Shown piece by piece: positions 1,268 through 48,792 of a DNA stretch of 52,789 nucleotides (positions are counted from its first letter, which is position 1; each line of letters starts with the position of its first letter). The stretch spans positions 1-52,789 of the forward strand of contig JBFFCW010000001.1 of the NCBI GenBank assembly GCA_041559695.1, in the 5' to 3' direction. The DNA is from Desulfobacterales bacterium (GTDB taxonomy: Bacteria > Desulfobacterota > Desulfobacteria > Desulfobacterales > JAHEIW01). The translations under genes were made by a program, and so were the position numbers. Under the pieces are notes generated by a model. The model worked only from the letters and a program-made list of their open reading frames with translations, ran no database searches and had not been told where the DNA came from.

Positions 1268-1633
1268 TTATTTCTTCGCTTGCTGGGTTTCATCTTTCTG
1301 CAGAAGAAGGGAACCCTGATGGCGTTTAAACTGAGTGGATGAATATTTGGCCAATTTCCAGTCGGGCACGCCGCAAACCCGGCAGACATCCGTGATCCAT
1401 TTATTGCGAAGCCAGCGGGCCGCTCTGCTGCTTCTGGAATTGTTGACCATGAATGTCTTGTTGCAGTGGGTGGTAATCTGAGCCTGGTCCCCCAGTTTTT
1501 CGATGGTTTTGATACCATGCAGAATTCCTTTTCGCGACGGCCACAGTTTAATTTTATCGATCAGGCGAAACAGCTCGACGCGTTTGCGATAGTATCGTTT
1601 GGCTGGTTTTTTTATTTTTTTCTCTGGCGCCAT
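1268..1633 (-). CDS. pylS: PylSn, the stand-alone N-terminal tRNA-Pyl-binding domain of a split bacterial pyrrolysyl-tRNA synthetase
   Basis: LWPSRKGILHGIK..MVNNSRSSRAARWLRNKW..CRVCGV matches the Methanosarcina PylRS N-terminus (LWMSRTGTIHKIK..VVNNSRSSRTARALRHHKY..CKRCRV). The start is taken at ATG 1633; the ORF track's upstream start at 1720 is a GTG and remains possible. Confidence 0.8.
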   Translation of the reverse strand: MAPEKKIKKPAKRYYRKRVELFRLIDKIKLWPSRKGILHGIKTIEKLGDQAQITTHCNKTFMVNNSRSSRAARWLRNKWITDVCRVCGVPDWKLAKYSSTQFKRHQGSLLLQKDETQQAKK

Positions 1634-2052
1634 GGCTGAATCAGCAGATCTTTCTGTAACGTGTTTGATATCATCTGTTCTCAGTCGGTCTGAATTCGAA
1701 GCGGTATATCGGTACAGCACTTACGTGCTTTTATCGCAATGGCTGTGGGCCGTCAATTTAATTCAGTAAATTTATAAAAATTACGTTTCGATCGGTTCGC
1801 TTCGCTCCTGGGGGGGACAGAAAAAAAATGGCCGGTCAATGCGAAGAAAGGCAGAAACAGAATAATATCCGGGCAAATTTCAGCAAAAATTTTTGAGTCC
1901 ATATAAAAGAGGTGGCATCTTACTGTGAGGCATGCTATGGATATGGTTTCTTGATTTTATCTATACAAGTAAGGTAACATACAGAAACTCAGGCTGTTCG
2001 CCCGTATTTAAGATTTTCAGAATTTCAATCATAATTCAAGCTGGCAATCAAC

Positions 2053-4731: not shown

Positions 4732-5859
4732 TCATGGGTGTGAAGCAAGACGGAAGGTTTGGGATGAGCATCGTGAACCAAGGGGTTTTCTGCGAGCCGC
4801 TGTTTCCTTGCGCTCCGCCATCCAGGATTCATATACGTTGCCACTGGCGACCCTCAGCCCCATAGCGGTGATCACTTTTTTAACTTCAGCCACGGTGCGC
4901 AGCCCCTGCTCGATGTCCAAAGCGCTTTGAGAAACTCCGGCCAGCCGGTTGTTGGGGGGAATAATGGATGTGATCACATTGGCTCCGGCATCCAGGCGCA
5001 TTTTGAGCCCTTTAATTCCGTCAACATCCAGCGAAGCGGGAATTAACCGGTCCGGCATGGCCAGACGCATCACCGCGATACACAAACATTCGATCATTCT
5101 CGAAGGGCTGGACATCCCGCAAAGCGGTGTCTCGGACTGGGGCACAAAACTCATCGTCCGGGCCTGGTCCACATCATTTTGCCGCATGGCCATAATGGAA
5201 TCCGCACGATCGTTGAGGGTTTCTCCGACGCCCAGCAAGATCCCGTCTTCCACCAGCATTCCGGCACGACGCGCGGCGTTTCTTTTATCGTTGCGGTATT
5301 TAAAGCGCTGGCCGGTTCTCAATTTTTTAAATAAAACGGAATTGTGAGTTTCCTGGTACAAAGCATACCAGTCCGTCTTAATTGCGGCGAACTGATGCAG
5401 GATTTCCTCGGGGACCACACCCGGTGAAATCATAACCGGTAAGCCTGTGTTTTTCTTTACCTGCGCAATCATTTCGATAAGAATATGGAAGTTGCCGCTA
5501 TCGTGTATCATTGGGTCTTCACCCAGGGTCAGGTCAACCAGATGCACGCCTGAATTTGCCAACTCGCAAGCGATTTCGATGACTTCTTCCAAACTCTTGC
5601 GGTAACGGGGGCTTTGTTTATTCGTTTTTCTATAAAAACAAAAAGTGCAATGATTTCGGCAATAAGTCGATAAATATATGAAACCATACAGGAATAATTG
5701 GTTCGCGAAATGCAGCCGGCACACCTTGCGAGCGGCTGACATAACCAGCTGAATCGATGCAGAATCTTTTAGAGACAATAATTGAAGGGTATCATCCGGT
5801 GATGGAGAAAATCCATGGATTGCCCTATCTAAAATATCGTTTAAACGACGCTGAGGCAT
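4732..5859 (-). CDS. pylB: Radical-SAM methylornithine synthase PylB (pyrrolysine biosynthesis)
   Basis: Colinear with Methanosarcina PylB: FIYLSTYCRNHCTFCFYR (CxxxCxxC), VDLTLGEDP, ALYQETHN, VEDGILLGVG and RLIPASLDVDGIKGLKMRLDAGANVITSIIPP. ATG at 5859. About 25 extra C-terminal residues. Confidence 0.8.
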   Translation of the reverse strand: MPQRRLNDILDRAIHGFSPSPDDTLQLLSLKDSASIQLVMSAARKVCRLHFANQLFLYGFIYLSTYCRNHCTFCFYRKTNKQSPRYRKSLEEVIEIACELANSGVHLVDLTLGEDPMIHDSGNFHILIEMIAQVKKNTGLPVMISPGVVPEEILHQFAAIKTDWYALYQETHNSVLFKKLRTGQRFKYRNDKRNAARRAGMLVEDGILLGVGETLNDRADSIMAMRQNDVDQARTMSFVPQSETPLCGMSSPSRMIECLCIAVMRLAMPDRLIPASLDVDGIKGLKMRLDAGANVITSIIPPNNRLAGVSQSALDIEQGLRTVAEVKKVITAMGLRVASGNVYESWMAERKETAARRKPLGSRCSSQTFRLASHP

Positions 5860-5885: not shown

Positions 5886-7718
5886 TTAGTTTAAGCAGTC
5901 TAAAATCGCACAGGCAATTTCAGTCTCATCTTCGACAAACGAAAAGTCCCCTTCTCCCTTGACGGCCAATTGGCGGATTTTCTCACGCTTGGCCGGCGGA
6001 AAACCGATGACACCCAGTTTATCGAACCGCACCGCCGCCTCCAGGGGGTCTCCTCCCCGGTTCCAGGCCCCGTCCGTCAGAATCAGCCCTCTTTTCTCCT
6101 CAAACTTGGCTAAATGATCCAGGCCGGCTTCTAGCGCCAGTCGAATATCGGTATCCCCGCTCAATTGTAAAGCAAACAACCGTTCTAGCACCTCTTCCGG
6201 TCCTGTTGACTCATCGATACCTTTTAGAACGGTAATCTGGTTGCTAAATGCCAAAACACCGTAATCTTTTTTGAAGTGTTGGGCAATGGCGGCGGCCGTG
6301 ATGGCAGCGAGTATGATCTTCATTCCTTTCATGGAATAACTGTGATCAAACATCATGACAAATGCCCTTTTTTCCTGTTGCCTGATGTAAGATACGAGAT
6401 TATCCAAAATCCCCAGTTCCGGTTGCTGCGCATATCTTTCAAGGCTGCAGTCCAATTCTATTTCAGCGCCGTCTGAAAAACCATTTTTCAGTTTCATCCT
6501 TCCGGTGCGGCAGCCGGTGTCGGCAATTTGTTTGGCGATTTTAATGATTAAGCGACTCGCTATTTTTACAGCCAGCGCTCGAACATTTTCTTTCAACATG
6601 CCGATGACATTGGCGAATACTTCCAATGAATCTTGTTTTTCAAAAAAAAGATCAAGCTCGTCGGGATTGGCGTTAAGATAACAAGCCACACGGTAGAAAT
6701 AGGAGCAATGCTCCATTTCTTCGCTTAGAAACCAGTTTGCTACGTAGCGATCAGTTTTTTTTTTGGCCTTTAAGGCTTCATCCGAACTTTTTTCTTCATC
6801 CTCCTGTTGGGTGCCGGGGTCGGTATTCTGGTCCCCGCTGCTCTCAAAATAAGACGCGCCCTTACCCCTTAAGCTGTTCCAAAGATCTTCAATGATTTCA
6901 TCGGCGGATTTCGCCGCCATTTCATTCAACCAGATTTTGTTGGACATGGCCATCCAGGCGGATCTTAAAAAATTTTGCTCCGGTTTATCGCTCAGTTTTT
7001 GCATGCCGTTGAATAAATCAACCAGATCAATACCGGCCCGGATGGATGCGCCCAGCTTGATATCCGGGTGATTTCGCGTCTCGCGCACCATCTTGACGGC
7101 CAATTCAATGATTTTGAGGTTGTCCGATCCGGTCCGAAGTCGAACAATAGCGCGTTCCTCATCTTCGTTCTGGTATTTCATTTTGATCAGGCAAATGCGA
7201 TCCATAAAGGCGCGGCTGACTCTGACAGTGCCGACATCGTCGTAAGGGTTTTGGGCGGCGATCACGGTAAACGGACGAACAGACTTTATCGAGCCGAACC
7301 TGGGAATAGCTATTTCCCCTTCCTCCATCGGAGAAATCAGCACATTGGAAACATCCGCCGGCATCCGATTAAATTCTTCGATGTAAAGAATACCGCCTTT
7401 TTCCATGGCACTTGTTAGCGGTCCCTTCTCAAAATATTCGGGCAGGTAACTATCTGCCATCACTTTGGCCGGATTAAAATGGCCGACCAGTTTGGCGGGT
7501 GTCAGATCGACATTTCCTTCTATTATATAAAACGGAATACCGGCCGCCTTGGCGATTATCCGCAGCAAGGTTGACTTTGACGTGCCGGGCGGCCCTTCCA
7601 AAAGAATATGTTTTCCGGCTTCCATGGCCGTCAGAATCGATATTATTTCGATCTGCCGGCCGACCACCGTTTCACAGGCTTTACGATAGATTTCAGTGAT
7701 TTTAAGTTTTTGTCCCAT
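5886..7718 (-). CDS. MoxR-type AAA+ ATPase fused to a C-terminal von Willebrand factor A (VWA) domain
   Basis: Walker A GPPGTSKST, Walker B ILYIEEFN, AAQNP and AFMDR. An acidic linker follows, then a VWA MIDAS motif (DHSYSM, SGDTD, LTDG). ATG 7718 is preferred; the ORF track's start at 7733 is a GTG. Confidence 0.75.
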   Translation of the reverse strand: MGQKLKITEIYRKACETVVGRQIEIISILTAMEAGKHILLEGPPGTSKSTLLRIIAKAAGIPFYIIEGNVDLTPAKLVGHFNPAKVMADSYLPEYFEKGPLTSAMEKGGILYIEEFNRMPADVSNVLISPMEEGEIAIPRFGSIKSVRPFTVIAAQNPYDDVGTVRVSRAFMDRICLIKMKYQNEDEERAIVRLRTGSDNLKIIELAVKMVRETRNHPDIKLGASIRAGIDLVDLFNGMQKLSDKPEQNFLRSAWMAMSNKIWLNEMAAKSADEIIEDLWNSLRGKGASYFESSGDQNTDPGTQQEDEEKSSDEALKAKKKTDRYVANWFLSEEMEHCSYFYRVACYLNANPDELDLFFEKQDSLEVFANVIGMLKENVRALAVKIASRLIIKIAKQIADTGCRTGRMKLKNGFSDGAEIELDCSLERYAQQPELGILDNLVSYIRQQEKRAFVMMFDHSYSMKGMKIILAAITAAAIAQHFKKDYGVLAFSNQITVLKGIDESTGPEEVLERLFALQLSGDTDIRLALEAGLDHLAKFEEKRGLILTDGAWNRGGDPLEAAVRFDKLGVIGFPPAKREKIRQLAVKGEGDFSFVEDETEIACAILDCLN

Positions 7719-7819
7719 TGCCCCGTTTCTCACATATCCGCTAAATAGCTGATGGGTTGATAGATTGATTCGTACCTATTCAAAATTAAGTCTAAATTAC
7801 CATATGTCACGTTGGCTTT

Positions 7820-8466: not shown

Positions 8467-9867
8467 TTAAAACTTCATTTTTTCCTTCAAACGATTGACG
8501 CCGGCGATTTCGATATCGAGCAGCTCGGCAATTCTTACTTTTGCCTCAATTCCCTTGGCGCAACCCGGGACAGACGTAATGATCCCTAAGTCCAGCTCCT
8601 CGCGGACCTCTCTCATTACGTGTACATCCGACAGGTCGGCCGGGGAAACTTTTAGCTTTTTGGCAACGTAGGCTTTTGCGTCGTTGATCCGCATCTTGCG
8701 GGCCATCTGCATGCGGGCCACCAGATCTCCGGCGGTCCTGATTCCACCCATTCCTGCTGCCACTCCGTGAGCTATCGACATCCCCATGGGATCTCCCACG
8801 CCAATCTACAAACCGTCTACTTTGGCAATTTCCACCATGGCCTTCGACGCCCGGCTGACTGAATCGATAGGCGGTGTCTCGAATATCGGCGAGCCGCCAA
8901 CACCCATTCCCATGTTCACATGGATGGGGATGTTGGACGCTTCAACGCACGCTTTTACAAAGGTCACCGCTCTGGCCACATTCCACGGCATGTTTTTGCT
9001 GGGCTTGGTGTTTACCACCGGGCCAAAAATATCCGCCCCGGCTTGCTCCACGAGCTTGACTTGATCATGGCAGTACAAACCAGCGAGTTGCTGACCTTCA
9101 TATTCCAGACCGCCGTGCATACCGAGTACAAATTCTCCGGCCATTCCCACTTCAATGCACATATCGGTGTTTTTTTTCAGATGCTCGACGGCGTGCAGGG
9201 TGGCCTTAAAATCCGTATCGCCCGCAGCCCCGGTGGTATCGAAGTTTATCCCGTCACAACCGACCTCTGCGAGTCTTTCGCATACATAAACCATGTCCCG
9301 AATGGCGTGCTCCACCGCCCCTTCCTGGGCCTCATAGGACTCCTGGATCTTGCCCGCGGGCAGCAAATCCGAAGGATTTCCAAAAGGCCCGTCGGGACTG
9401 TAGTACAGACCCAGGTTTGGCATGGCGCCATAAAAGAGCGGCAGAATCGTTACCAGCAGCGCATTTTCCATTTCCTGCTGTTCCATAGCAATAACCGGCT
9501 TTACCGGCTTAAAGCTATAATCGATATGTCCCAGCTCCATGGTATCGGCACAAAATGCCCTTTCATGGACCTGGATGCCCTGCACCCGGCTCAGCGGTAT
9601 GCCGACACCGCTGTTGCCCTGGTCTCCCATCACCCGCAGGGTTCCGATATCGTGGGTGACGACCACTTCGTTCCCCGGCTCCACACTTACAAACCGAGTG
9701 GGGTTGGTAAAGATGTCCAGCAGGATGTCCAGATCATCTTTTGACAGCGGCGCTATCTTGCCCTTGTCGGCGGCGTCTGCAGTGCCCGCCTCCAAGTCGC
9801 TCATTATTTCCTCGGAAGTCATTTCAATGAGCGCTCCGTCCCCCCGTCTAGTAAGGTATTTCGCCAT
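8467..9867 (-). CDS. mtbB: Dimethylamine:corrinoid methyltransferase MtbB with in-frame UAG (Pyl) at 8806-8808, codon 354
   Basis: ORFs 8806-9885 and 8467-8799 are in the same frame and are separated only by TAG. The junction [16 protein letters not shown] equals the Methanosarcina MtbB VDG(I/L)-Pyl-IGVGDPLGM. The alignment holds over the full length ([24 protein letters not shown]). A strong RBS (GGAGGTGA) precedes ATG 9867. Confidence 0.9.
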
Positions 9868-9881
9868 ATTCTCACCTCCTT

Positions 9882-10526
9882 TCAACTGAATATTTCTTTG
9901 AGTTTCATCACCGTATCACCGGCGTTTTCCGCCCAAAAAGTCGCACCGATTTTGGCAGCCCAGTGTTCAGTGGTCGCCGCACCGCCGACCATAGTGGTCA
10001 GCTTGTCTCGAATTCCCGCGTCTTTCAGGGCTTGCTCAAGGGCTTTTTGCCCCACCTGGGTCGTTGTCATCAGCGCCGAGGAACCGACAACATCTGCGTC
10101 GGCCTCTTTTGCTTTTTCCACAAACGTCGCAATCGGTACATCTCGGCCCAGATCGATGACCTCAAAGCCGTAAACCCTAAGCATGGTGGCGACAATGCCT
10201 TTGCCGATGTCATGCACGTCCCCTTCGACCGTCCCGATCACAACCTTGGCCAGTTTCTTGCCGACCTGGTCTGCGGGCATGGCCTGTTCCAGTACCTTTA
10301 CCGCTGCCGTCATCGCCTCGGACGCGATGATCAGATGCGGTAAAAAGACCTCTCCGCGATCAAAGAGGTCCCCCAGTTTCCGGATGCCTTCAGAAAGACC
10401 TTTTTCGATCATCTCAACCGGATCGAGACCCTCATCTAAATATTCCTGGGCCAATTTCACTGCAGCTTGCTCATTTGCATCAATGATGTGCTGGGCAGCC
10501 TTTTCCATGAATTCCGCTTTGTCCAT
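9882..10526 (-). CDS. mtbC: B12-binding corrinoid protein (MtbC-like)
   Basis: DxHxxG motif (GDVHDIGK) plus SALMTTT and GGA motifs. It lies immediately upstream of mtbB. Confidence 0.85.
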
Positions 10527-10696: not shown

Positions 10697-12394
10697 TCAA
10701 GTTTCACCCTTGGCAGCATACAATTTTTTTTGTACAAAGACTTTTTCCTGACAGGATTTTTCACATCTCCTGCAGGCAAGCCCATTGCATCGGGCCAGAT
10801 CGATGGTAATAGAAAATTTCCCCTCCTCCTCTTCCAGGACAAGGGCCTCCTCGGGACATTCTTCGATACAGTCCTCACAGCCAACGCAGCCTTCGAAAGC
10901 AATCGTTTTATGTTCACCAATATCGGAAATAATCTCCAGGCCCTTGATCCCAAGATCCGGAATATCCTTTTGCACTGTTTTGATGACTTCTGGAATCATC
11001 TCAGTCTCTTTTAACGGTGGAAGACCGAATTTTTCCAAAAACTGCTGGTACTGATTCATGGGCATCCCCTGGGTCCAATAAGAAAGTTCCAGGATATACA
11101 CCTGTTCAAATACCTTGGACTCAGCGAACATGCAGTGATGCTGTCGAAGATCATCGGCGATGCGCTTCATGCGCCAGAGTTCATCCACACGCTTGACCAT
11201 ATCCCTGGCCATGGCCAGGGACGAGTTTCCCACCTGGTAGATTTTGTTAACCCCGGGCGGTATCATGCCGATTTCCTGGGCTTTGAGCGCATCTACGTAA
11301 GTACCAGAAGCACCGGACATATAAGCGGTTTCGACATCTTCCAGTCGGATCCCGGCCTCCTGACACAGGGAGATATGACCGGCCCTGACCGCGCCGATGG
11401 CCTTGCCGGCTTCCTCAAGATCTTTCTCCGTAAACTTGATCCCGTCGGGCAAATGGATTTTTGCGTCCGAAGTATGGATCTTGGGAAGCCGAATGGTATG
11501 GGTTTTAAGGTTCTGGCTGATCAGGGCAATAACCCCGGTCCCGGTTATGCCGACGGCTTTTTCCAGTCCTTTTTCAAGCAACGCTCCCGTGGCTGGATCC
11601 ACCGTATCGCCCGGCTGAACCGTCATCGTGTCATCGAGGATAAATGTTTTCATCCGCCTGCTGATCGCTTGATCTTCCTGCGGGTTGTCTGCAACGCCGA
11701 TACCTTCACCTTTTAACGCCTCAAACTCGACATCGCAGATGGCCCCGGGAAGCGCCAATAGTCCATCTTCTATGTGTTGACCTTCCAGGGCCGGTCCGGC
11801 GGCTGTTGAACCGGTATAAACCGTGCCGTCGACGATCAGGGCCATCTCGGCATTCGTACCGTAGTCTGTGGTAATGGCGATTTCATCGCTGTTCAGCATG
11901 CCGGTCTGAATCATCATCGCCAGTGCATCGGCACCGATTTCATGCCGAACCGCCGGGGGAACCAGGATATCCGTGTTTGGCGGCAGATTGAGCGCGGAAA
12001 TTTCGCGAGCTTTCATGATTTGCGCGTCTCTTTTGGGAGCCACCACTCCCAAAGACGCCAGTTTCCGTTTTCCCGCATAGGCAAGATCCCTGATTTCGAT
12101 CTCCTGGAAAAGGGAAAGCTGGATGGGGTTGCCACAGACCGCCAGCCTGACCACCTCATTATTTTCGATCTTTAGATGGTCAATTACCCGGTTGACGGCA
12201 TGCACCACAATTTTGTGGGCTCGATCAAGACCCATCTCAACGGCAAAATGAAGGTGATCCATGACATTGGCGCCCGGAAGGGGATGCCGGGTGGTGACAG
12301 CGGTGGACAAAATCCTTCCATTTTGATCCAGATCGAGGGCCTGCCCGCGAAAACCACTGGTGCCCAAATCCAATGCAACACCCAGTCTTGCCAT
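10697..12394 (-). CDS. ramA: RamA-type methylamine corrinoid activation protein (ASKHA ATPase plus C-terminal 2x[4Fe-4S] ferredoxin)
   Basis: Near-colinear with M. barkeri RamA: ALDLGTSGFR, RLAVCGNPIQLSLFQ, IGADALAMM, TDYGTNAEMAL and LSYWTQGMP. The C-terminus carries CVGCEDCIEECP and CRRCEKSC. Confidence 0.9.
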   Translation of the reverse strand: MARLGVALDLGTSGFRGQALDLDQNGRILSTAVTTRHPLPGANVMDHLHFAVEMGLDRAHKIVVHAVNRVIDHLKIENNEVVRLAVCGNPIQLSLFQEIEIRDLAYAGKRKLASLGVVAPKRDAQIMKAREISALNLPPNTDILVPPAVRHEIGADALAMMIQTGMLNSDEIAITTDYGTNAEMALIVDGTVYTGSTAAGPALEGQHIEDGLLALPGAICDVEFEALKGEGIGVADNPQEDQAISRRMKTFILDDTMTVQPGDTVDPATGALLEKGLEKAVGITGTGVIALISQNLKTHTIRLPKIHTSDAKIHLPDGIKFTEKDLEEAGKAIGAVRAGHISLCQEAGIRLEDVETAYMSGASGTYVDALKAQEIGMIPPGVNKIYQVGNSSLAMARDMVKRVDELWRMKRIADDLRQHHCMFAESKVFEQVYILELSYWTQGMPMNQYQQFLEKFGLPPLKETEMIPEVIKTVQKDIPDLGIKGLEIISDIGEHKTIAFEGCVGCEDCIEECPEEALVLEEEEGKFSITIDLARCNGLACRRCEKSCQEKVFVQKKLYAAKGET

Positions 12395-12536: not shown

Positions 12537-13550
12537 TCAATGCGCCTCGGCCGCTTCCAGCATGGCCTTGAGGTTCAGCGTCGTCGTCGCCGGCCCGACC
12601 GCACAGCCCGGTGCCAGGATCTGGATGCCGTCGGCAATGGCCGTCTCGGCTTCCTGTTTTATCTCTTCGGGCCCATGCAAAAATAGGGTGGTCGCCACAT
12701 CTATTCCGCCCAACAACACAATATCCGGTCCGCATTTCTCCCTGGCAACCCGAGGATTTGTTTTCGGGTCCAGGCTTAGAACAGTCGCGCCGGTTTGCCC
12801 CATCCATTCGACAATGTTGTCGACCTTGCCGCAGATATGCAAAAGCGTCGGGACAGAGATGGCTTCAAACTGTCTGGTCTGATATTCCAATTCATAATCT
12901 TTGTATGTTTTCGGCGCAATCAGCTCAGGCGAGGCGGTCATATCTTCGCAGGAAATGATGTCGGCCCCGGCATCGATAAGCGCTTTTGCCAGCGTGGTTC
13001 CGGCCTTTTCCCCGATCTCCAACCAGGGCCGCATCTTTTCGGGTGCTTTGAAAGACGCCTTGAGAAGGGGAACCGTATCGATAAGAGAACCGGCAATGGT
13101 AAAAGGCCCGATGATTCCAGCCACCACCGGCACTTCATCGCCCAATTCCTTTTTTAAAATGCCGACGGCTTTGAGCAGTTCCGGAATAAACCCCCGCGAA
13201 AGAAAATCATCGGGGAATACCGGCGTGTCGTCAAGATTAAACGCCGGCGGGTGATCGATCCCCGGAATTCCTTCAACACCGCCCGGGCCCTTTCCCGGTT
13301 TTATCTTAGATCCTAAAGCGCGCGCTTCAAACGTTTGACAGAATGGAACTCTGACCGCGTCAAAACCCAGGACCGTATGTGAGGCAAGCGCCAGTTTGGC
13401 CATGGCTTCCCCGTCTTCATGCGCTTTGGGCCAAAAGGCTTGAACCGCATCCATTTGCTCGTAAGTTGCCATAGAGTTGGCTCCAAAACACGGCATCCGG
13501 TCCGGCTTTTCATGGTTGAGAACCGCCATAACACGTTCTTTCGAATTCAT
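12537..13550 (-). CDS. UroD-family methylcobamide methyltransferase (MtbA/MtaA-like)
   Basis: MNSKERVMAVLNHEKPDRMPCF..VRVPFCQTFEARALG..LHICG is typical of the MtaA/MtbA/UroD fold. RBS GGAGG before ATG 13550. Confidence 0.8.
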   Translation of the reverse strand: MNSKERVMAVLNHEKPDRMPCFGANSMATYEQMDAVQAFWPKAHEDGEAMAKLALASHTVLGFDAVRVPFCQTFEARALGSKIKPGKGPGGVEGIPGIDHPPAFNLDDTPVFPDDFLSRGFIPELLKAVGILKKELGDEVPVVAGIIGPFTIAGSLIDTVPLLKASFKAPEKMRPWLEIGEKAGTTLAKALIDAGADIISCEDMTASPELIAPKTYKDYELEYQTRQFEAISVPTLLHICGKVDNIVEWMGQTGATVLSLDPKTNPRVAREKCGPDIVLLGGIDVATTLFLHGPEEIKQEAETAIADGIQILAPGCAVGPATTTLNLKAMLEAAEAH

Positions 13551-13679: not shown

Positions 13680-13941
13680 AGCACCCCCCAATGCAAGACC
13701 CAATTAAAACAGTTCGAGTGTCTTGTTGCTTCGACTTAATGGATGATACATCCAGCCAATGTGAAGCGGGTGTGTGAATTCTGCAAAAAAGCGCCGGGCG
13801 GTTTCACCGGCCTCCTTGGTCGGAAATATTGCCCTGCTTTTTTACGAATTGCGCCTCCATCTGAAACGTCACTGCTGAAGTATCATCTGAATTTACCTGC
13901 CGAAATCGATTGCATCGCAAAATAGCAACCTGGCGGATCAA

Positions 13942-15435
13942 TTATTTCTCCGCGGCTTTTGCGGCTTCTTCCGCTTCTAAAGCTTCCTGCTCTTCAACGA
14001 TGGAACGTAGTTTCGACGACACATCTTTGGGCAACGGAACCGGCTTATGGTTTTCCAAAATGTGGCGGGCTTCTTCTGCAGCCGCCTCGGCCATATCTTT
14101 GCCGCCACGTTTTTGCCAGGCCCCTCTCATCCGCCGGTCGATCAGCTTTACCTTGGACTGCTCCGGTCCCATATACTGCCGGGTATGCTTCTGAGCTAAA
14201 AAGTCCTTTCCGGCCCCGACCCTCTTGATGAGTTCAACCGCCAGGGTGTCATCGTTGATGGGTACACCTTGAACAACTCTTTTGCACATCCGGGCGATCT
14301 CATTATCAATCACAAGCTGGGCAAAGCTGAAAGTCACACCTAACTCCAACATACCCATCCCATAAATGAGATTTGCGCCCGCCAATGCCGGCAGCAGGGA
14401 GGTCATGGTTTTCTCATGCCCTGCTTGGACATCGGAAACCTTGCTGTCAGCCTACGCACCGGCGACATAGCTGGGTAAAAGGTACTTGCGTGCCAATGCC
14501 GTAACACCGGCACTGATCATGCCCAGTTCCGGTGCTCCCACCGGAGCGGTGGCATAGGTTAAATCAAAGGTTGTAGTCGAGCTGCCGTAAATCACCGGAG
14601 CGCCTTTGGCAGTCAACTGGGCCAGAACAATGCCGGACAACACTTCGGCATTGTGGGTCACCAGGGTCCCGCCAACGGTGACAGGGGAAGAAGCCCCTGA
14701 CATGGCCATGGAAAGAACGTTCACCGGAACCCCCGCCTTGGCGCACTCGATAATGATTTCAGCCGTATGAGTATGCAGCTCCAACGGGCTGGTGGGACAC
14801 ACCAGAGCGGAAACCAGGGGCCGCCTCCGCAGCTCGTCCATTCCGCCAATGATTTCGGCGGCCATTTCAAAAAACTTTTTGGCCCCGTCTCCGCCGGTCA
14901 GGTCAATGTGCTGACAGTGCTTGGACGTATTGCTCAAAAACGCCTCGGCTTCGTTTAAATCGGTGGCCCGTTCGACGTCTCTGGCCACCACTGCGCTGGA
15001 GTAAACATCCACATTATCCATGGCGTCACATGCCAGCGCGGTATGTCCGACATCCTGTTTGTTGGATTCCCGGAACTCACCGTTAAAGGGATCCACCACC
15101 ATGACGCCGGCGCCAAAGCTGGTGAATCCGACTCTGCCACCCTGCAGGGTGACATCATATTCCGGGGTTCGTCCGGCCAGCAGGATGGTGCTGGGAGCGG
15201 AACTAATGGCATCTTCCACCAGATGGGGAGGAATTCGAACATGGTTGTTCTCACGGTCCACGTAGGCGCCGCCATTTTCGAAAATATCCATGGCTTCGTC
15301 ACAATGAACCCCGACGCCGTAGTTTTGCAGGACGTCCAAGGTGGCGAGATGAATCTCGGTCAATTCATCATCGGTGAACATGCTCAACCCCCAGCCATCC
15401 ATGGTGCTGATGCCTGGTTGAAGTCCTCTGATCAT
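13942..15435 (-). CDS. mttB: Trimethylamine:corrinoid methyltransferase MttB with in-frame UAG (Pyl) at 14452-14454, codon 328
   Basis: ORFs 14452-15444 and 13942-14406 are in the same frame. Reading through gives [49 protein letters not shown], against M. barkeri [40 protein letters not shown] before ATG 15435. Confidence 0.9.
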
Positions 15436-15455
15436 AAGTATCACCTCCTTTGCTG

Positions 15456-16100
15456 CTATTTGATTAATTCTTTGGCTTTGAGAACCGTATCGTTCGCATC
15501 CTCAGCATAGCAATCGCAACCGATTTTATCCGCCCATTCCTGGGTGGTTGCCGCTCCACCGATCATGGTTTTAAAATTATCCCTGATACCGGCTTTGCGC
15601 AGCTTTTCTTCAAGGATTTTTTGCCCACCCATGGTCGTGGTCATCAGGGAAGAAGAGCCCAGTATATCCGGTTTAAGCTCTTTGGCCTTCTCAACGAACT
15701 CGTCGATCGGCACATCCCGGCCCAGATCATGAACTTCAAAGCCATAAACTTTCAGCATTGTCGCCACAATCCGTTTGCCGATATCATGGATGTCACCTTC
15801 GATGGTTCCAATGACGACGGTGCCTAACGATTCTGCAACTTCTTCCTTTGGAATATGCGGTTCCATTATCGCAATGGCCTTTGTCATGGCCTCGGCGGCT
15901 ACCAGGACACCGGGAAGGGGAATTTCTTCATTTGCGAAACCGTCACCCACCTCGGTCATTGCCGGTGACAAGCCTTCATTAATGATTTCCACCGGGTTGA
16001 TCCCCTCTTCAATGACTTTTTTGGCCATGGCCTCGGCAGCTTCCTCGTCACCCTGCACGACAGCCTGCCGGGCCTCTTTTAACAGGTCTTCCTTGCTCAT
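15456..16100 (-). CDS. mttC: B12-binding corrinoid protein (MttC-like)
   Basis: GDIHDIGK, SSLMTTT and GGAATT motifs. RBS [9 protein letters not shown]. It is the first gene of the minus-strand string and ends in TAG, with a TGA five codons later. Confidence 0.85.
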   Translation of the reverse strand: MSKEDLLKEARQAVVQGDEEAAEAMAKKVIEEGINPVEIINEGLSPAMTEVGDGFANEEIPLPGVLVAAEAMTKAIAIMEPHIPKEEVAESLGTVVIGTIEGDIHDIGKRIVATMLKVYGFEVHDLGRDVPIDEFVEKAKELKPDILGSSSLMTTTMGGQKILEEKLRKAGIRDNFKTMIGGAATTQEWADKIGCDCYAEDANDTVLKAKELIK

Positions 16101-16655: not shown

Positions 16656-16975
16656 TCTATTACACCTTGACTAATTAAACTTCTTATTATTAACTGGCCG
16701 AACTAGCGCCTTTTGCAGACAAGAGGCGGCAACGGCCAATCGGCAGCCTGCCGTTTCAGTTACTGAATTCGGGAAAGTTTAGATTCTACCTCGATTGAGC
16801 GTTTTTTGAAAAGAAGTGTACCGGATTTGTGTCCATCAGGATTTGCGAAAACCGCAGGCATACCTGTGGCCAGATCGATGATTTTCGTCCCGCCCAGGCG
16901 AGAATGCGCAAGAGACCGGTACGTCTCAAGCAAAAAATCGCTCAATTCAGGTCCTCATGAAAGGAGGTGAAATTA

Positions 16976-17614
16976 ATGTCTGAAAAGGAAATGTTCGAGC
17001 GTTTGAAAAAAAGCGTTATTGATATGGACGAGGAGGGCGCCAAGGCGGCGGCCAATGATGCGATCGCACAAAAGCTTGATCCCCTTGCCTGTATTGAAGG
17101 GGGTTTGTCCGCAGCCATGAAGGTGATCAGCGACAAGTTTGATAGCGCCGAGATTTATGTGCCGCAGATCATTCTTGCGGCCGAGGCCTTTACAGCCGCC
17201 GTAGACATTCTGGCATCCCACATCGAGGGAGGCTACGCCGGCAAGGGTAAAATTATCCTTCATACCGTTGAAGGGGACATTCATGACATCGGCAAAAACA
17301 TTGTCGGGATCCTGTTGCAGGCCAACGGCTTTGAGGTTATCGATTTAGGGCGGGACGTGGCTGTCGTTGATGTGGTTGACGCAGCCGTTGAGAAGGGTGT
17401 TGATGTGATTGCCGGTTCGGCTCTGATGACGACCACGATGCCTGCTCAACGGGAGATCATGGATGAGTTGAAAGACCGCGGCATCAAGGACCAATTCAAG
17501 TGCCTCTTTGGTGGCGCCCCCACGAGTCAGGAATGGGTGGACCAGATCGGCGCTGATGCATGGGCGGAAAACGCCGCGGAAGCAGTGACTGTTGTCAACG
17601 AATTAACGAGCTAA
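16976..17614 (+). CDS. mtmC: B12-binding corrinoid protein (MtmC-like)
   Basis: GDIHDIGK, SALMTTT and GGAPT motifs. AAGGAGGTGA at 16961-16970 precedes ATG 16976. The ORF track's start at 16967 lies inside the RBS. Confidence 0.85.
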   Translation: MSEKEMFERLKKSVIDMDEEGAKAAANDAIAQKLDPLACIEGGLSAAMKVISDKFDSAEIYVPQIILAAEAFTAAVDILASHIEGGYAGKGKIILHTVEGDIHDIGKNIVGILLQANGFEVIDLGRDVAVVDVVDAAVEKGVDVIAGSALMTTTMPAQREIMDELKDRGIKDQFKCLFGGAPTSQEWVDQIGADAWAENAAEAVTVVNELTS

Positions 17615-17641: not shown

Positions 17642-19027
17642 ATGGCTTTCAAAGAGAAAGTGGGCGTGTTCGAAACTTATGATCGAGCACGCACCGGTCC
17701 CAGGGTCGATGAAAAGGAATGGGATCGAAAGATCACATTTCAAACGGCAAGCAAGTTAAAGGAAAAATACAAACTTAAATTCGACCGATCCAAGATCATC
17801 CCCACTGATACCGACATGATAGATCGATTATACCAGGCCGGTCTTGAAATGCTTGTGGAAATGGGTGTTTTTTGCATGGATACGGGTCGCGTCATCAAGT
17901 ACACTGAAGATGAAGTCCTGATGGCTGTTGCCGGAGCGCCTCATGAGCTTACGTTGGGTGAAGGTCGCGATGCGCGCCAGCTGGCAGGCAGAAGTTTCGA
18001 TGATCCCCGCCCACCCCTGAATCAAGGTGGTCCTACCGGGGCTCCTGTATCGGAAAACATTTTTATTCCCATGCATGAGGCCTACGCTAGAGAACCTTTG
18101 GTAGATGCCATCGTTAACGGGGTCTTGTCCACCATCAACGGCAGGGAGCCTAAGCCCGGTTCTCCATGGGAGATAGCCGCCGTCAAAGGAGAGGTCTCAA
18201 TGATCCGGATGGCGATGACGCGGGCCGGTCGTCCCGGCATGGCCATGTAGGGGAGCGAAACATCACTGACTGCCGCCGGTGTGGTGGCGGCTGATTTTCC
18301 TGGGGGCATGAGAGCCTGCGACAGCCACGAAGTGAGCCAATTAAACGAGCTTAAAATTGACATCAATGCGCTCACCTTCACGGCACATTACAGGTTAGCG
18401 GGCGACATCATCATGAGCGAGCAGATGCCAATCATTGGGGGCTGGGCCGGAGGGGTCGAGGAGACCTCTATCGTGAACGTCGCCACCCATTTGGCCGCTT
18501 TTATTATGGTCGGAGCGGACTGGCATTTGGACGGACCCATTCACGTACGCTGGGGCAACACCACGGCCAGGGAGCCGTTGATGGTTGCCGGCCATGCGTG
18601 TCGGGCTGTGGATCGCAATACGCACCTGTTGCTGGGAAATCAGTACTATACCTCCGCGGGACCTTGCACTGAAATGTGTCTGCTGGAAGCGGCGGCCCAG
18701 GCCATAACGGATACGGCCAGTGGCCGCGAGATCATGAGCGGATGCGCTTCGGCCAAAGGCGTGGCCCTGGATTATACCACCGCCATGGAAGCCCGGTTCA
18801 TGGCTTACGCAGCCAGAGCGGTGGCGGGAGTCGAAACTGAAAAGGTCAATGCGATGCTGGATAAGCTGGTGAGCATGTATGAGACCAAGTTCAAAGAGGC
18901 GCCCAAAGGCAAGACCTTTCAAGATTGCTACGATGTGAGCACCCTGACGCCTTCCGATGAGTATTTGAAGGTGTTTGATGGCGCGCTTAAAACCATGGAG
19001 AAAATCGGATTTAAATTTAAAATTTAG
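17642..19027 (+). CDS. mtmB: Monomethylamine:corrinoid methyltransferase MtmB with in-frame UAG (Pyl) at 18248-18250, codon 203
   Basis: ORFs 17642-18250 and 18281-19027 are in the same frame. AGRPGMAM-TAG-GSETSLTAAG..DSHEVSQLNELKID matches M. barkeri AGRPGMGV-Pyl-GPETSLSAQG..DSHEVSQLNELKID. The remainder is also colinear (GPCTEMCLLEAAAQAITDTASGREI). Confidence 0.9.
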
Positions 19028-46624: not shown

Positions 46625-48007
46625 TCAAGATATTTTTTGTTTAAACTTGTTGACACAGTTAATTTCCAAATTTAGCAATTTTGCGATGCGAAACTTGGCA
46701 TCAATTCCTTTTGCCACGCCAGGGCATTCATTCAGGGCCCCAAGATCCATATCTTCCCTGACTTCTCTCATGGCAACCGGATCTGCGATATCTTCCACCG
46801 AAACCCCGAGCCTGCCGGCCACATACTTCTTGGCGTCCTCAATCCGCATCGCCCGGTTCAGCTGCAAACGCGCCACCAGATCTCCGGCAGTGCGTAATCC
46901 GCCCATCCCCGAAACGATTGCATGTGCCGCATGCATCCCGTAAGGGTCGCCAACGCCCACCTACAATCCGTCCAATCTACAAATCTCAACATGCGCTTTG
47001 GAAGCTCTCGCCAGGGCGTCCACCGGCGGGGAAATCGCCATTGGAACGCCACCCACACCCATTCCCAGATTGGCATGTACCGGGATATCGGATGCCTCCG
47101 AACAGGCCTTTGTATAGGTGAGGGCCCGGGCCAGGTTGAAAGGCAGTGATTTGCTGGGGACGACATTGATGGCCGGTCCGAAGATCGTAGCCCCTGCTTT
47201 TTGTGCCAGTTTTATTTGGTCGTGGGGATAGAGCCCCGCCAATCGGACCCCATCGTATTCGACCTCACCATGCAACCCCATTATGAATTCCGAAGCCATT
47301 CCCATTTCAATGCCCATCTCGGGATATTTCTTTTTAAGGATCTCCACTGCTTGGAGCGCCGCGAGAAACTCCGCATCTCCCGCCGCAGCGGTGGTGTCAA
47401 AATTAATGCCATCTGCTCCGGTTTCATACATTTCACTGCCCACATAGACCATGTCTTTTACCGCATAATCTATCGCCTCTTCAAAAGAGGCCCTGCCTTC
47501 GGCGATCTTCCCCTGAGCGAACAGATCCAGTGGATTGGGGCAGGGACCGACGGGTTGGCTGTACAATCCCAAATTCGGCATCGCACCATAAAGAAGGGCC
47601 GGAATGGTAATTAATAACGCCTGTTCCATGATGGGTTTCTCGAATACCACGATGGGTTTTACCGGTTTATAGCTGTAGTCAATGTGAGCAAGCTCCAGGG
47701 TATCGGCGCCGAGTGCCCTTTCAAAAATCTGTAATGATTGGATTTTACTCAGCGAGACGTGTGCGCGCTTGATTTTAGTGGTACAGCTGTCGTAGGTAAG
47801 GCAAACCTCCTTTCCTTTTTCAACACCGACCACCCGATCCGTACATTTGTGGATTTCATACAAGTACTGAAGTTCATCTTTGGTAAGAACCGGGATCTTT
47901 GCTCTGTCTGCAGCATCGGTCGTCCCTTTTTCAAGATCTTCCCGGAGTTCGGCTCCGGTCATTTCGCACCTGATACCGTCACCCATTCTGGTTTGGATTT
48001 TTTCCAT
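46625..48007 (-). CDS. Divergent MtbB-family methyltransferase with in-frame UAG (Pyl) at 46961-46963, codon 349
   Basis: ORFs 46961-48028 and 46625-46960 abut in the same frame. LDGL-TAG-VGVGDPYGM retains the MtbB Pyl context. Other regions are conserved ([36 protein letters not shown]), but the [11 protein letters not shown] segment of canonical MtbB is missing. GGAGGAAG RBS before ATG 48007. Confidence 0.85.
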
Positions 48008-48024
48008 TGTCTTCCTCCATTTAC

Positions 48025-48792
48025 TCAATCGGTTTTAGAATTCAGATATGCCTTGACCGAATCCCAGGTCTTTAATAAGATTCTATGGGTGCCTTCACAG
48101 ACGTCCGTACGGAAACCAAACATCTCATTGAAAGCCTCGATATTTCGTCTCATTTCTGCAAGACACATAATCGGTGTTTGAATCAGCAGAGAGCGTTCAT
48201 AATGCTTGAATAGCCGTTTCGCCATTTCAGCGCTTAGGTTGCCGAACTCCTGCTCGAACATGCGCTTCCAATGGTATGTCCAGCCGGGTATCATAAAAAA
48301 GGTGCCCGCCACCCGGCACTGTTCTTCGTAATAGCGTTTGCGCCCACCGATAATCAGACCGATACAATCGTCAACCGGATGATCCTCATCCATGGGGATA
48401 AAAACAGGCACCCCGGCATCGGACAGCAGTCCCCCGGGATTTTCAAATGCGTTCCCGCACAAACCGTATCCAAGCATCAGAGCATCCACGCGAGGCCCAA
48501 ATGCCATTGCTGCCTCAATTAATCCCTGTTGAAGGGTGTGTTTGCGAATATGCAAGGCCAGCTCTAAAACACCGACCAAGACTTCCAGAGCAATTTGGGG
48601 ATCCGGGGTGAAATCATTCAGATGGGCGATCCGATTTAACTTGTCTTTATTGGTGGACTCAAAGGCAGCAATCAAGCGCGCGGATCGCTCATTCTCAAGA
48701 ACCGTAATGCGGCCGACTTCCTTATCCACCGCCAACAATTCGGCAAATTCCAGTTCCAGAATCTCACAGGTCAGCACGCCCAAAATTGCCAT
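48025..48792 (-). CDS. DUF1638-like protein (family assignment tentative)
   Basis: 255-aa ORF with an LGYGLCGN motif. It lies immediately upstream of the mtbB paralogue, with its stop 18 nt before that gene's start. Confidence 0.5.
   Translation of the reverse strand: MAILGVLTCEILELEFAELLAVDKEVGRITVLENERSARLIAAFESTNKDKLNRIAHLNDFTPDPQIALEVLVGVLELALHIRKHTLQQGLIEAAMAFGPRVDALMLGYGLCGNAFENPGGLLSDAGVPVFIPMDEDHPVDDCIGLIIGGRKRYYEEQCRVAGTFFMIPGWTYHWKRMFEQEFGNLSAEMAKRLFKHYERSLLIQTPIMCLAEMRRNIEAFNEMFGFRTDVCEGTHRILLKTWDSVKAYLNSKTD

Follow-up and report, generated by a model that had tools for sequence, protein, structure and literature searches.

How is a gene read that an in-frame UAG seems to cut in two, and what does its product do? 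The question is raised by positions 13,942 to 15,435 of a 52,789-nucleotide (nt) stretch of DNA from a Desulfobacterales bacterium (assembly GCA_041559695.1, contig JBFFCW010000001.1, positions 1 to 52,789), the whole of which we call the window. An earlier note, made from the letters alone, had seen in this segment a genuine mttB, the gene for trimethylamine (TMA) methyltransferase, with a UAG at the site of pyrrolysine (Pyl). Family score, the alignment column that holds Pyl in known enzymes (the Pyl column), phylogeny and decoding machinery all support this reading, with TMA as the presumed substrate, and we conclude from sequence comparison that the segment is very probably an intact gene for the Pyl-dependent MttB of an uncultured Desulfobacterales-like bacterium, for which an account of decoding and catalysis can be proposed. 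The metagenome-assembled genome (MAG) to which the window belongs, referred to as G000, comprises 3.9 Mb in 487 contigs, is about 72% complete and is itself Desulfobacterales-like; below, C-numbers denote its contigs and L-numbers the loci of relatives.

The reading frame across the UAG and its conservation

The features on which the argument first depends are the following:

13942..15435, minus strand: mttB, predicted Pyl-type trimethylamine:corrinoid methyltransferase, 497 codons including one UAG (translation, PF06253, TIGR02369, 7xcl, tree)
14452..14454, minus strand: in-frame UAG, codon 328, predicted pyrrolysine (aligned to X334 of PDB 7xcl; TAG in 78/78 relatives)
15444..15449, minus strand: Shine-Dalgarno sequence AGGAGG, 8 nt before the mttB ATG (sequence; kept in orthologues)
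15456..16100, minus strand: mttC, cognate corrinoid protein, directly upstream of mttB and co-directional (TIGR02370, 254 bits)

The open reading frames (ORFs) at 14452-15444 and 13942-14406 are a single minus-strand frame, that of mttB cut at its TAG, and the 45 nt at 14407-14451 are open, representing the codons between the TAG and the next Met codon. Translation with TAG read as O bears out what the earlier note had said of the two ORFs and their junction and reproduces its read-through peptide exactly: the frame has one internal stop only (14454..14452) and ends at a TAA (13944..13942). The chance of meeting 169 more sense codons past the TAG is about 3e-4, if stops occur at a rate of about 3/64 per codon. 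Since the AAAGGAGGTGA-N-ATG start arrangement is kept across orthologues, we set the start of mttB at ATG 15435 and not at the GTG 15444 of the ORF list.

The translated protein matches the MTTB domain (PF06253) with 305.5 bits over residues 18-484 and the NCBIfam equivalog for the Pyl-type enzyme (TIGR02369) with 740.5 bits against a cut-off of 525; in a six-frame search of the genome it was the top scorer for this model (738 bits, with one TAG inside). The TIGR02369 score alone is insufficient to establish the Pyl type, as some paralogues that have no TAG pass at 529-608 bits. The best match among solved structures is Methanosarcina barkeri MttB (7xcl/7xcm/7xcn; for 7xcl, E 1.6e-142 and about 50% identity over 475 columns). 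Residue 328 of the window protein pairs with X334, the Pyl that follows LPSYVAGS in 7xcl, placing the UAG at the Pyl site as had been proposed; in 9yce, a glycine betaine enzyme, this position is Leu. In the M. barkeri enzyme, which has a KM of ~50 uM and whose catalytic mechanism needs the Pyl imine, Gly110 and Tyr364 hold the water that protonates this imine, Met249 gates the TMA pocket, Thr111 and Gly372 contact the corrinoid, and Glu225 touches Arg130 of MttC (PMC9842639). The window MttB keeps Gly108, Met243, Tyr358 and Gly366 (Gly110, Met249, Tyr364 and Gly372 in M. barkeri), and its Glu219 (Glu225) is paired with Arg128 (Arg130) of the MttC encoded next to it. Met249 and Gly372 do not vary across 82 sequences that carry the TAG, and 81 of these have Tyr364, whereas the non-TAG paralogues differ at these positions.

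The conservation of the TAG was followed in 78 related loci fetched from the genome collection, both from bacteria and from Methanosarcinaceae. All 78 have TAG in the same alignment column, and they span six phyla: Thermodesulfobacteriota (including Desulfobacterales), Bacillota, Actinomycetota, Spirochaetota, Nitrospirota and the archaeal Methanobacteriota (Methanosarcinaceae). TAG-bearing MttB genes occur in 14 of 40 genomes related to the MAG. In the MAG itself, a family search gave 19 matches to the MttB superfamily, 18 of which were recovered by tblastn extraction for alignment and tree; exactly three have an internal TAG, in each case in the Pyl column. The 15 non-TAG paralogues and 9yce have C, L, M, Y, T, R, V, S, I or G in this column, consistent with the statement of the earlier note that non-Pyl members of the superfamily lack the codon. 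In a quick IQ-TREE maximum-likelihood search (LG+G4), in which several branches among the non-Pyl paralogues are long, the 82 TAG-bearing sequences fall on one side of a branch (SH-aLRT 98) and all 16 non-TAG sequences on the other. The window mttB nests with genes from Desulfobacterales and Desulfobacula MAGs at 89-92% identity; the comparison by tree and alignment that the earlier note had recommended thus places it inside the TAG-bearing clade, apart from the non-Pyl paralogues of the glycine-betaine and other types.

Two further groups of genes in the same tree deserve mention. The other Pyl-type mttB paralogues of G000 lie at C50:6175-7623 and C62:8702-10150; the three copies are 50.6-55.5% identical in pairwise comparisons, and the C50 and C62 copies group with Thermoleophilia, which we flag as long branches meeting. 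After the C50 copy come an mtbB-like gene and the gene of a corrinoid protein. The sister clade of the Pyl enzymes is a set of non-Pyl MttB proteins (C4:10022-11428 and C263:31-1302 in G000, G019:C165:9611-11023 and others in relatives) in which Tyr364 is replaced and the Pyl column holds Tyr or Met. Some of its members are among those that exceed the TIGR02369 cut-off, often beside a true Pyl-mttB, and annotation will probably call them TMA methyltransferases in error.

Could the TAG be an error of sequencing or assembly? Only the fragmentation of the MAG into its 487 contigs speaks for such an error. Against it, 78 genomes that were assembled independently show TAG in this very column, as do two other paralogues in G000. 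This excludes the sequencing error that the earlier note had named as a way in which it could be wrong, and we give an artefact of the MAG a negligible probability.

The possibility that the TAG is a true stop, leaving either a pseudogene or separate products of 327 and 154 residues, calls for more discussion. It draws on the fact that TAG is a common terminator here and that standard ORF calling splits mttB. However, purifying selection past the TAG equals that before it: among eight close orthologues, the ratio of nonsynonymous to synonymous substitution rates is 0.05-0.10 downstream of the TAG against 0.03-0.075 upstream, with synonymous divergence (dS) of at least 0.7, so that the downstream segment must be translated in this frame. 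The TAG of mttB has persisted, in 78/78 relatives, while synonymous sites turned over almost to saturation. A TIM-barrel enzyme ending at residue 327 would moreover be devoid of Tyr358, Gly366 and the dimerisation loop, and the genome holds a complete pyl machinery (see below). Together, the conservation of the TAG and the selection around it in practice exclude a sequencing error as well as a pseudogene, and we consider termination at codon 328 as the sole fate of the message very improbable.

Several observations nevertheless weigh against a functional Pyl-type MttB in this organism. TAG ends about 24% of the long ORFs of the genome, including mttC and the mtmB gene described below; the census rests on crude ORFs. 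Since TAG is so common as a stop, read-through of mttB must be partial or regulated, and a truncated product of 327 residues is also to be expected. Thr111 of M. barkeri MttB, which takes part through the N-H and carbonyl of the Gly110-Thr111 peptide and through a hydrogen bond to the corrinoid (PMC9842639), is replaced by Ala in the window protein, at a position that is variable across the Pyl clade. Lastly, dsrA, dsrB and CdhC/AcsB were not found in the 72%-complete MAG, and we therefore claim neither sulfate reduction nor a Wood-Ljungdahl route for it. The nearest relatives of this MAG are labelled Desulfobacterales/Desulfobacula.

Decoding of the UAG

Three features of the window bear on how codon 328 would be decoded:

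1268..1720, minus strand: pylSn, small N-terminal subunit of the split bacterial pyrrolysyl-tRNA synthetase (PylRS), start unrefined (TIGR03912, 126.7 bits against a cut-off of 51)
4732..5859, minus strand: pylB, methylornithine synthase, last gene of the co-directional string that includes mttB (TIGR03910, 440.7 bits against a cut-off of 348)
14355..14454, minus strand: match to Rfam RF02510 (PYLIS_3, 'pyrrolysine insertion sequence mttB'; 86.6 bits against a gathering score of 38)

The genome encodes pylT, PylRS (as PylSn and PylSc), PylB, PylC and PylD. The gene for tRNA-Pyl (pylT), with anticodon CTA, was found by ARAGORN at C4:22883-22956 and is followed on that contig by PylSc, PylC and PylD (C4:22883-26045), in a cassette that has no pylB; the pylB of the window is the sole match above the cut-off in the genome. 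The pyl genes are thus split, with pylB closing the methylamine gene string of the window and pylSn, whose product is a hallmark of the split bacterial enzyme, lying beyond a two-component system. We propose that the UAG at codon 328 is read by the Pyl-tRNA(CUA) from pylT, which would be charged by the split PylSn/PylSc enzyme with pyrrolysine made by PylB, PylC and PylD, and which would compete with release factor 1 (RF1); no dedicated mRNA structure was found for the process (see below).

One could also imagine that the UAG is read through as a canonical amino acid, by a near-cognate or other suppressor tRNA, given that Pyl at codon 328 is deduced from sequence comparison. Yet a dedicated tRNA(CUA) gene stands beside pylSc-pylC-pylD, pylB and pylSn are present, and the reaction requires the Pyl imine (PMC9842639), for which reasons we regard a canonical residue at this position as exceedingly unlikely, and insertion of Pyl as the probable outcome.

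The frequency of TAG as a terminator means that UAG is ambiguous in this genome, as has been described for Pyl-using bacteria. Both mttC (15456-15458, minus strand) and mtmB (19025-19027, plus strand) end in TAG; another stop follows in frame after 5 and 8 codons, respectively, and both proteins would gain short tails if their terminal UAG were read as Pyl. We considered the terminal UAG of mttC as a conserved signal coupling it to mttB and rejected the idea, the orthologues using TAA or TGA.

Does the mttB message carry a signal that helps to recode its UAG? The match to RF02510, a family that derives from Theil Have et al., 2013 (PMC3639795), covers 100 nt beginning at the mttB UAG and scores well above the gathering threshold. 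The model has few base pairs, four of which are non-canonical in the window sequence; the fold of this stretch is no better than that of shuffled sequences (z = -0.07), and RNAalifold gave 0 consensus pairs past the UAG over 46 diverse Pyl-mttB genes. The conservation past the UAG in these 46 genes follows the 3-nt periodicity of codons. On the z-score and the absence of consensus pairs we reject the match as a structured RNA element, and attribute it to coding conservation at codon positions 1 and 2, which is what the RF02510 family model appears to capture.

A weaker signal was met in the synonymous sites. Within the Desulfobacterales clade (10 related sequences), codons 326-341 of mttB have an observed/expected synonymous variation of 0.75-0.79, the lowest or second lowest in the gene; against a specific constraint, there is a similar dip at codons 445-462 and the effect is gone across all 79 genes, and the post-UAG dip is therefore a lead and not a finding. 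The low-variation codons right after the UAG are GCT GAC AGC ... TCC GAT (window 14400-14460, minus strand). It is conceivable, if rather doubtful, that Pyl insertion in mttB is aided by two local devices, the detached pylB and a clade-specific context after the UAG (UAG GCU GAC AGC). PylB catalyses the first step of Pyl synthesis. Were the idea correct, the position of its gene at the end of the mttC-mttB-...-mtbB string would raise the supply of Pyl only during transcription of the methylamine genes, and the nucleotide context past the UAG could weaken termination by RF1.

The methylamine genes and the proposed reaction

The genes around mttB that bear on its role are listed here:

12537..13550, minus strand: MtaA/CmuA-family methylcorrinoid methyltransferase (MT2) of URO-D fold (PF01208; TIGR01463 and NF004889 over their cut-offs)
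10697..12394, minus strand: ramA, reductive activase of methylamine corrinoid proteins (TIGR04270, 764 bits against a cut-off of 500)
9882..10526, minus strand: mtbC-like corrinoid protein (TIGR02370, 242 bits)
8467..9885, minus strand: mtbB, dimethylamine methyltransferase, in-frame TAG at codon 360, counted from TTG 9885 (PF09505, TIGR02368, translation)
16967..17614, plus strand: corrinoid protein of a divergent mtm operon (TIGR02370, 231.6 bits)
17642..19027, plus strand: mtmB, monomethylamine methyltransferase, in-frame TAG at codon 203 (translation)

MttC, the probable partner of MttB, has M. barkeri MttC as its best solved relative (7xcn_M, E 2.1e-68) and keeps the Asp-x-His ligand motif, the threonine of MTTTM and Arg128. 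The mttC-mttB adjacency is seen in 8 of 9 close orthologous loci, that is, in all those that reach far enough upstream, L016 being cut just before its mttB. Downstream of mttB, the co-directional string continues with the genes for the MT2, RamA, the second corrinoid protein, the Pyl-type MtbB, a DUF2284 protein and an AAA+/VWA protein, and then pylB; the string is presumably organised as an operon. The nearest relative, L014, shares the order mtmB / mttC-mttB-MT2-ramA-mtbC-mtbB-DUF2284-AAA/VWA with the window. The MT2 gene is syntenic in L014, L016 and L021, and orthologues of mtmB (84-92% identity) adjoin mttC-mttB in L014, L015 and L019.

On the basis of the M. barkeri structures, the imine of Pyl 328 would add TMA to form a quaternary adduct, with the water that protonates the imine held by Tyr358 and the carbonyl of Gly108. 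One methyl group would pass to the Co(I) of MttC, and dimethylamine would be released. Methyl-MttC would then be unloaded by the downstream MT2, probably onto tetrahydrofolate, while RamA, using ATP, would re-reduce corrinoid that had become oxidised to Co(II). The MtbB and MtmB systems encoded nearby, which are likewise of the Pyl type, may process the dimethylamine and the monomethylamine derived from it.

The substrate is the step of this scheme for which an alternative has to be weighed, namely that MttB does contain Pyl but that its physiological substrate is another tertiary or methylated amine. The three TAG-bearing paralogues of the genome are distant enough from one another to have diverged in specificity, and the MttB superfamily is one of many known substrate specificities (PMC8604678, PMC12155760). 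The window copy, on the other hand, is the one that scores highest in the genome against the TMA equivalog and retains every pocket residue of the TMA enzyme, and its gene is grouped with those of MttC, MtbB/C and MtmB/C as one would expect if TMA is demethylated stepwise. A different amine is accordingly improbable, and TMA is the most plausible substrate of this MttB.

Some further observations were made on the same genes. A second mtbB in the window (46625-48028, minus strand) has an in-frame TAG at codon 356, and more mtbB-like copies lie at C50:7706-9088 and C4:17909-19291. The AAA+(MoxR)-VWA protein (5886-7733, minus strand) is encoded by one ORF of 615 codons in the window, as it is in L017, and aligns as two pieces in L014, L020 and L021; in L014 (15987-17449), the sole locus examined for frame, the pieces are in different, overlapping frames. 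The difference suggests either that two separate genes are fused in some of these loci or that there is a frameshift. A terminator scan found no intrinsic terminator after mttB on the minus strand. By eye, a GCCGG/CCGGC hairpin with a 9-nt loop, beyond the limit of the scan, is followed by T6 at about 13785-13811 (minus strand), some 130 nt past the mttB stop and within the 391-nt gap before the MT2 gene; it may terminate or attenuate transcription between mttCB and the genes that follow.

Comparison with known systems and significance

The closest characterised system is that of M. barkeri (PDB 7XCL/7XCM/7XCN; Li et al., 2023, PMC9842639). The window MttB resembles its MttB in fold, in length and in having UAG in the Pyl334 column; the likeness extends to an MttC with the Asp-His-Thr triad, encoded adjacent to mttB in the window, and to the Glu225-Arg130 contact pair, which is kept. 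Unlike M. barkeri, the host is a bacterium with a split PylRS (PylSn and PylSc), Thr111 is changed to Ala, and UAG is frequent as an ordinary stop; nor can it be assumed that the downstream methyltransferase of the window uses coenzyme M.

Pyl-type MttB has been reported earlier in the delta-1 symbiont of Olavius algarvensis (Zhang and Gladyshev, 2007, PMC1976440) and in marine Deltaproteobacteria/Desulfobacterales with a dual code expansion for selenocysteine (Sec) and Pyl (Kivenson et al., 2021, PMC8318568). These systems belong to the same bacterial group as that of the window and, like it, have a Pyl-MttB near a corrinoid protein and RamA, together with several non-Pyl MttB paralogues; the MAG shares with them the occurrence of Sec and Pyl in one genome, with a tRNA-Sec on contig C380. 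In contrast to them, the window also has Pyl-type mtbB, in two copies, and mtmB, and its pylB stands apart from pylT-Sc-C-D. The gene that comes directly after mttB in the window encodes an MtaA/CmuA-family MT2, whereas Kivenson et al. (2021) call the second methyltransferase uncharacterised and suggest a member of the MetH family (PMC8318568). The non-Pyl members of the superfamily, such as the glycine betaine enzyme MtgB (PDB 2QNE, 9YCE), share with the window MttB the superfamily, the TIM-barrel fold and the type of corrinoid partner, but have His or other residues in place of Tyr364; MtgB itself is about 29% identical to the window MttB, has Leu in the Pyl column and stands outside the TAG clade.

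Pyl-mttB genes of this kind are already documented in Desulfobacterales, and the finding changes nothing that is known; it adds one more well-supported case of genetic-code expansion in sulfate-reducer-type bacteria. For annotation, it implies that automatic pipelines will split mttB into fragments of 330 and 154 residues and may label some of the non-Pyl paralogues as TMA methyltransferases. The locus unites all three Pyl methyltransferases, RamA, an MtaA-family MT2 and pylB, and is a possible test bed for the questions of which bacterial enzyme unloads methyl-MttC and of how bacteria tolerate an ambiguous UAG. In anoxic sediments, bacteria of the sulfate-reducer type may be competitors of methanogens for trimethylamine.

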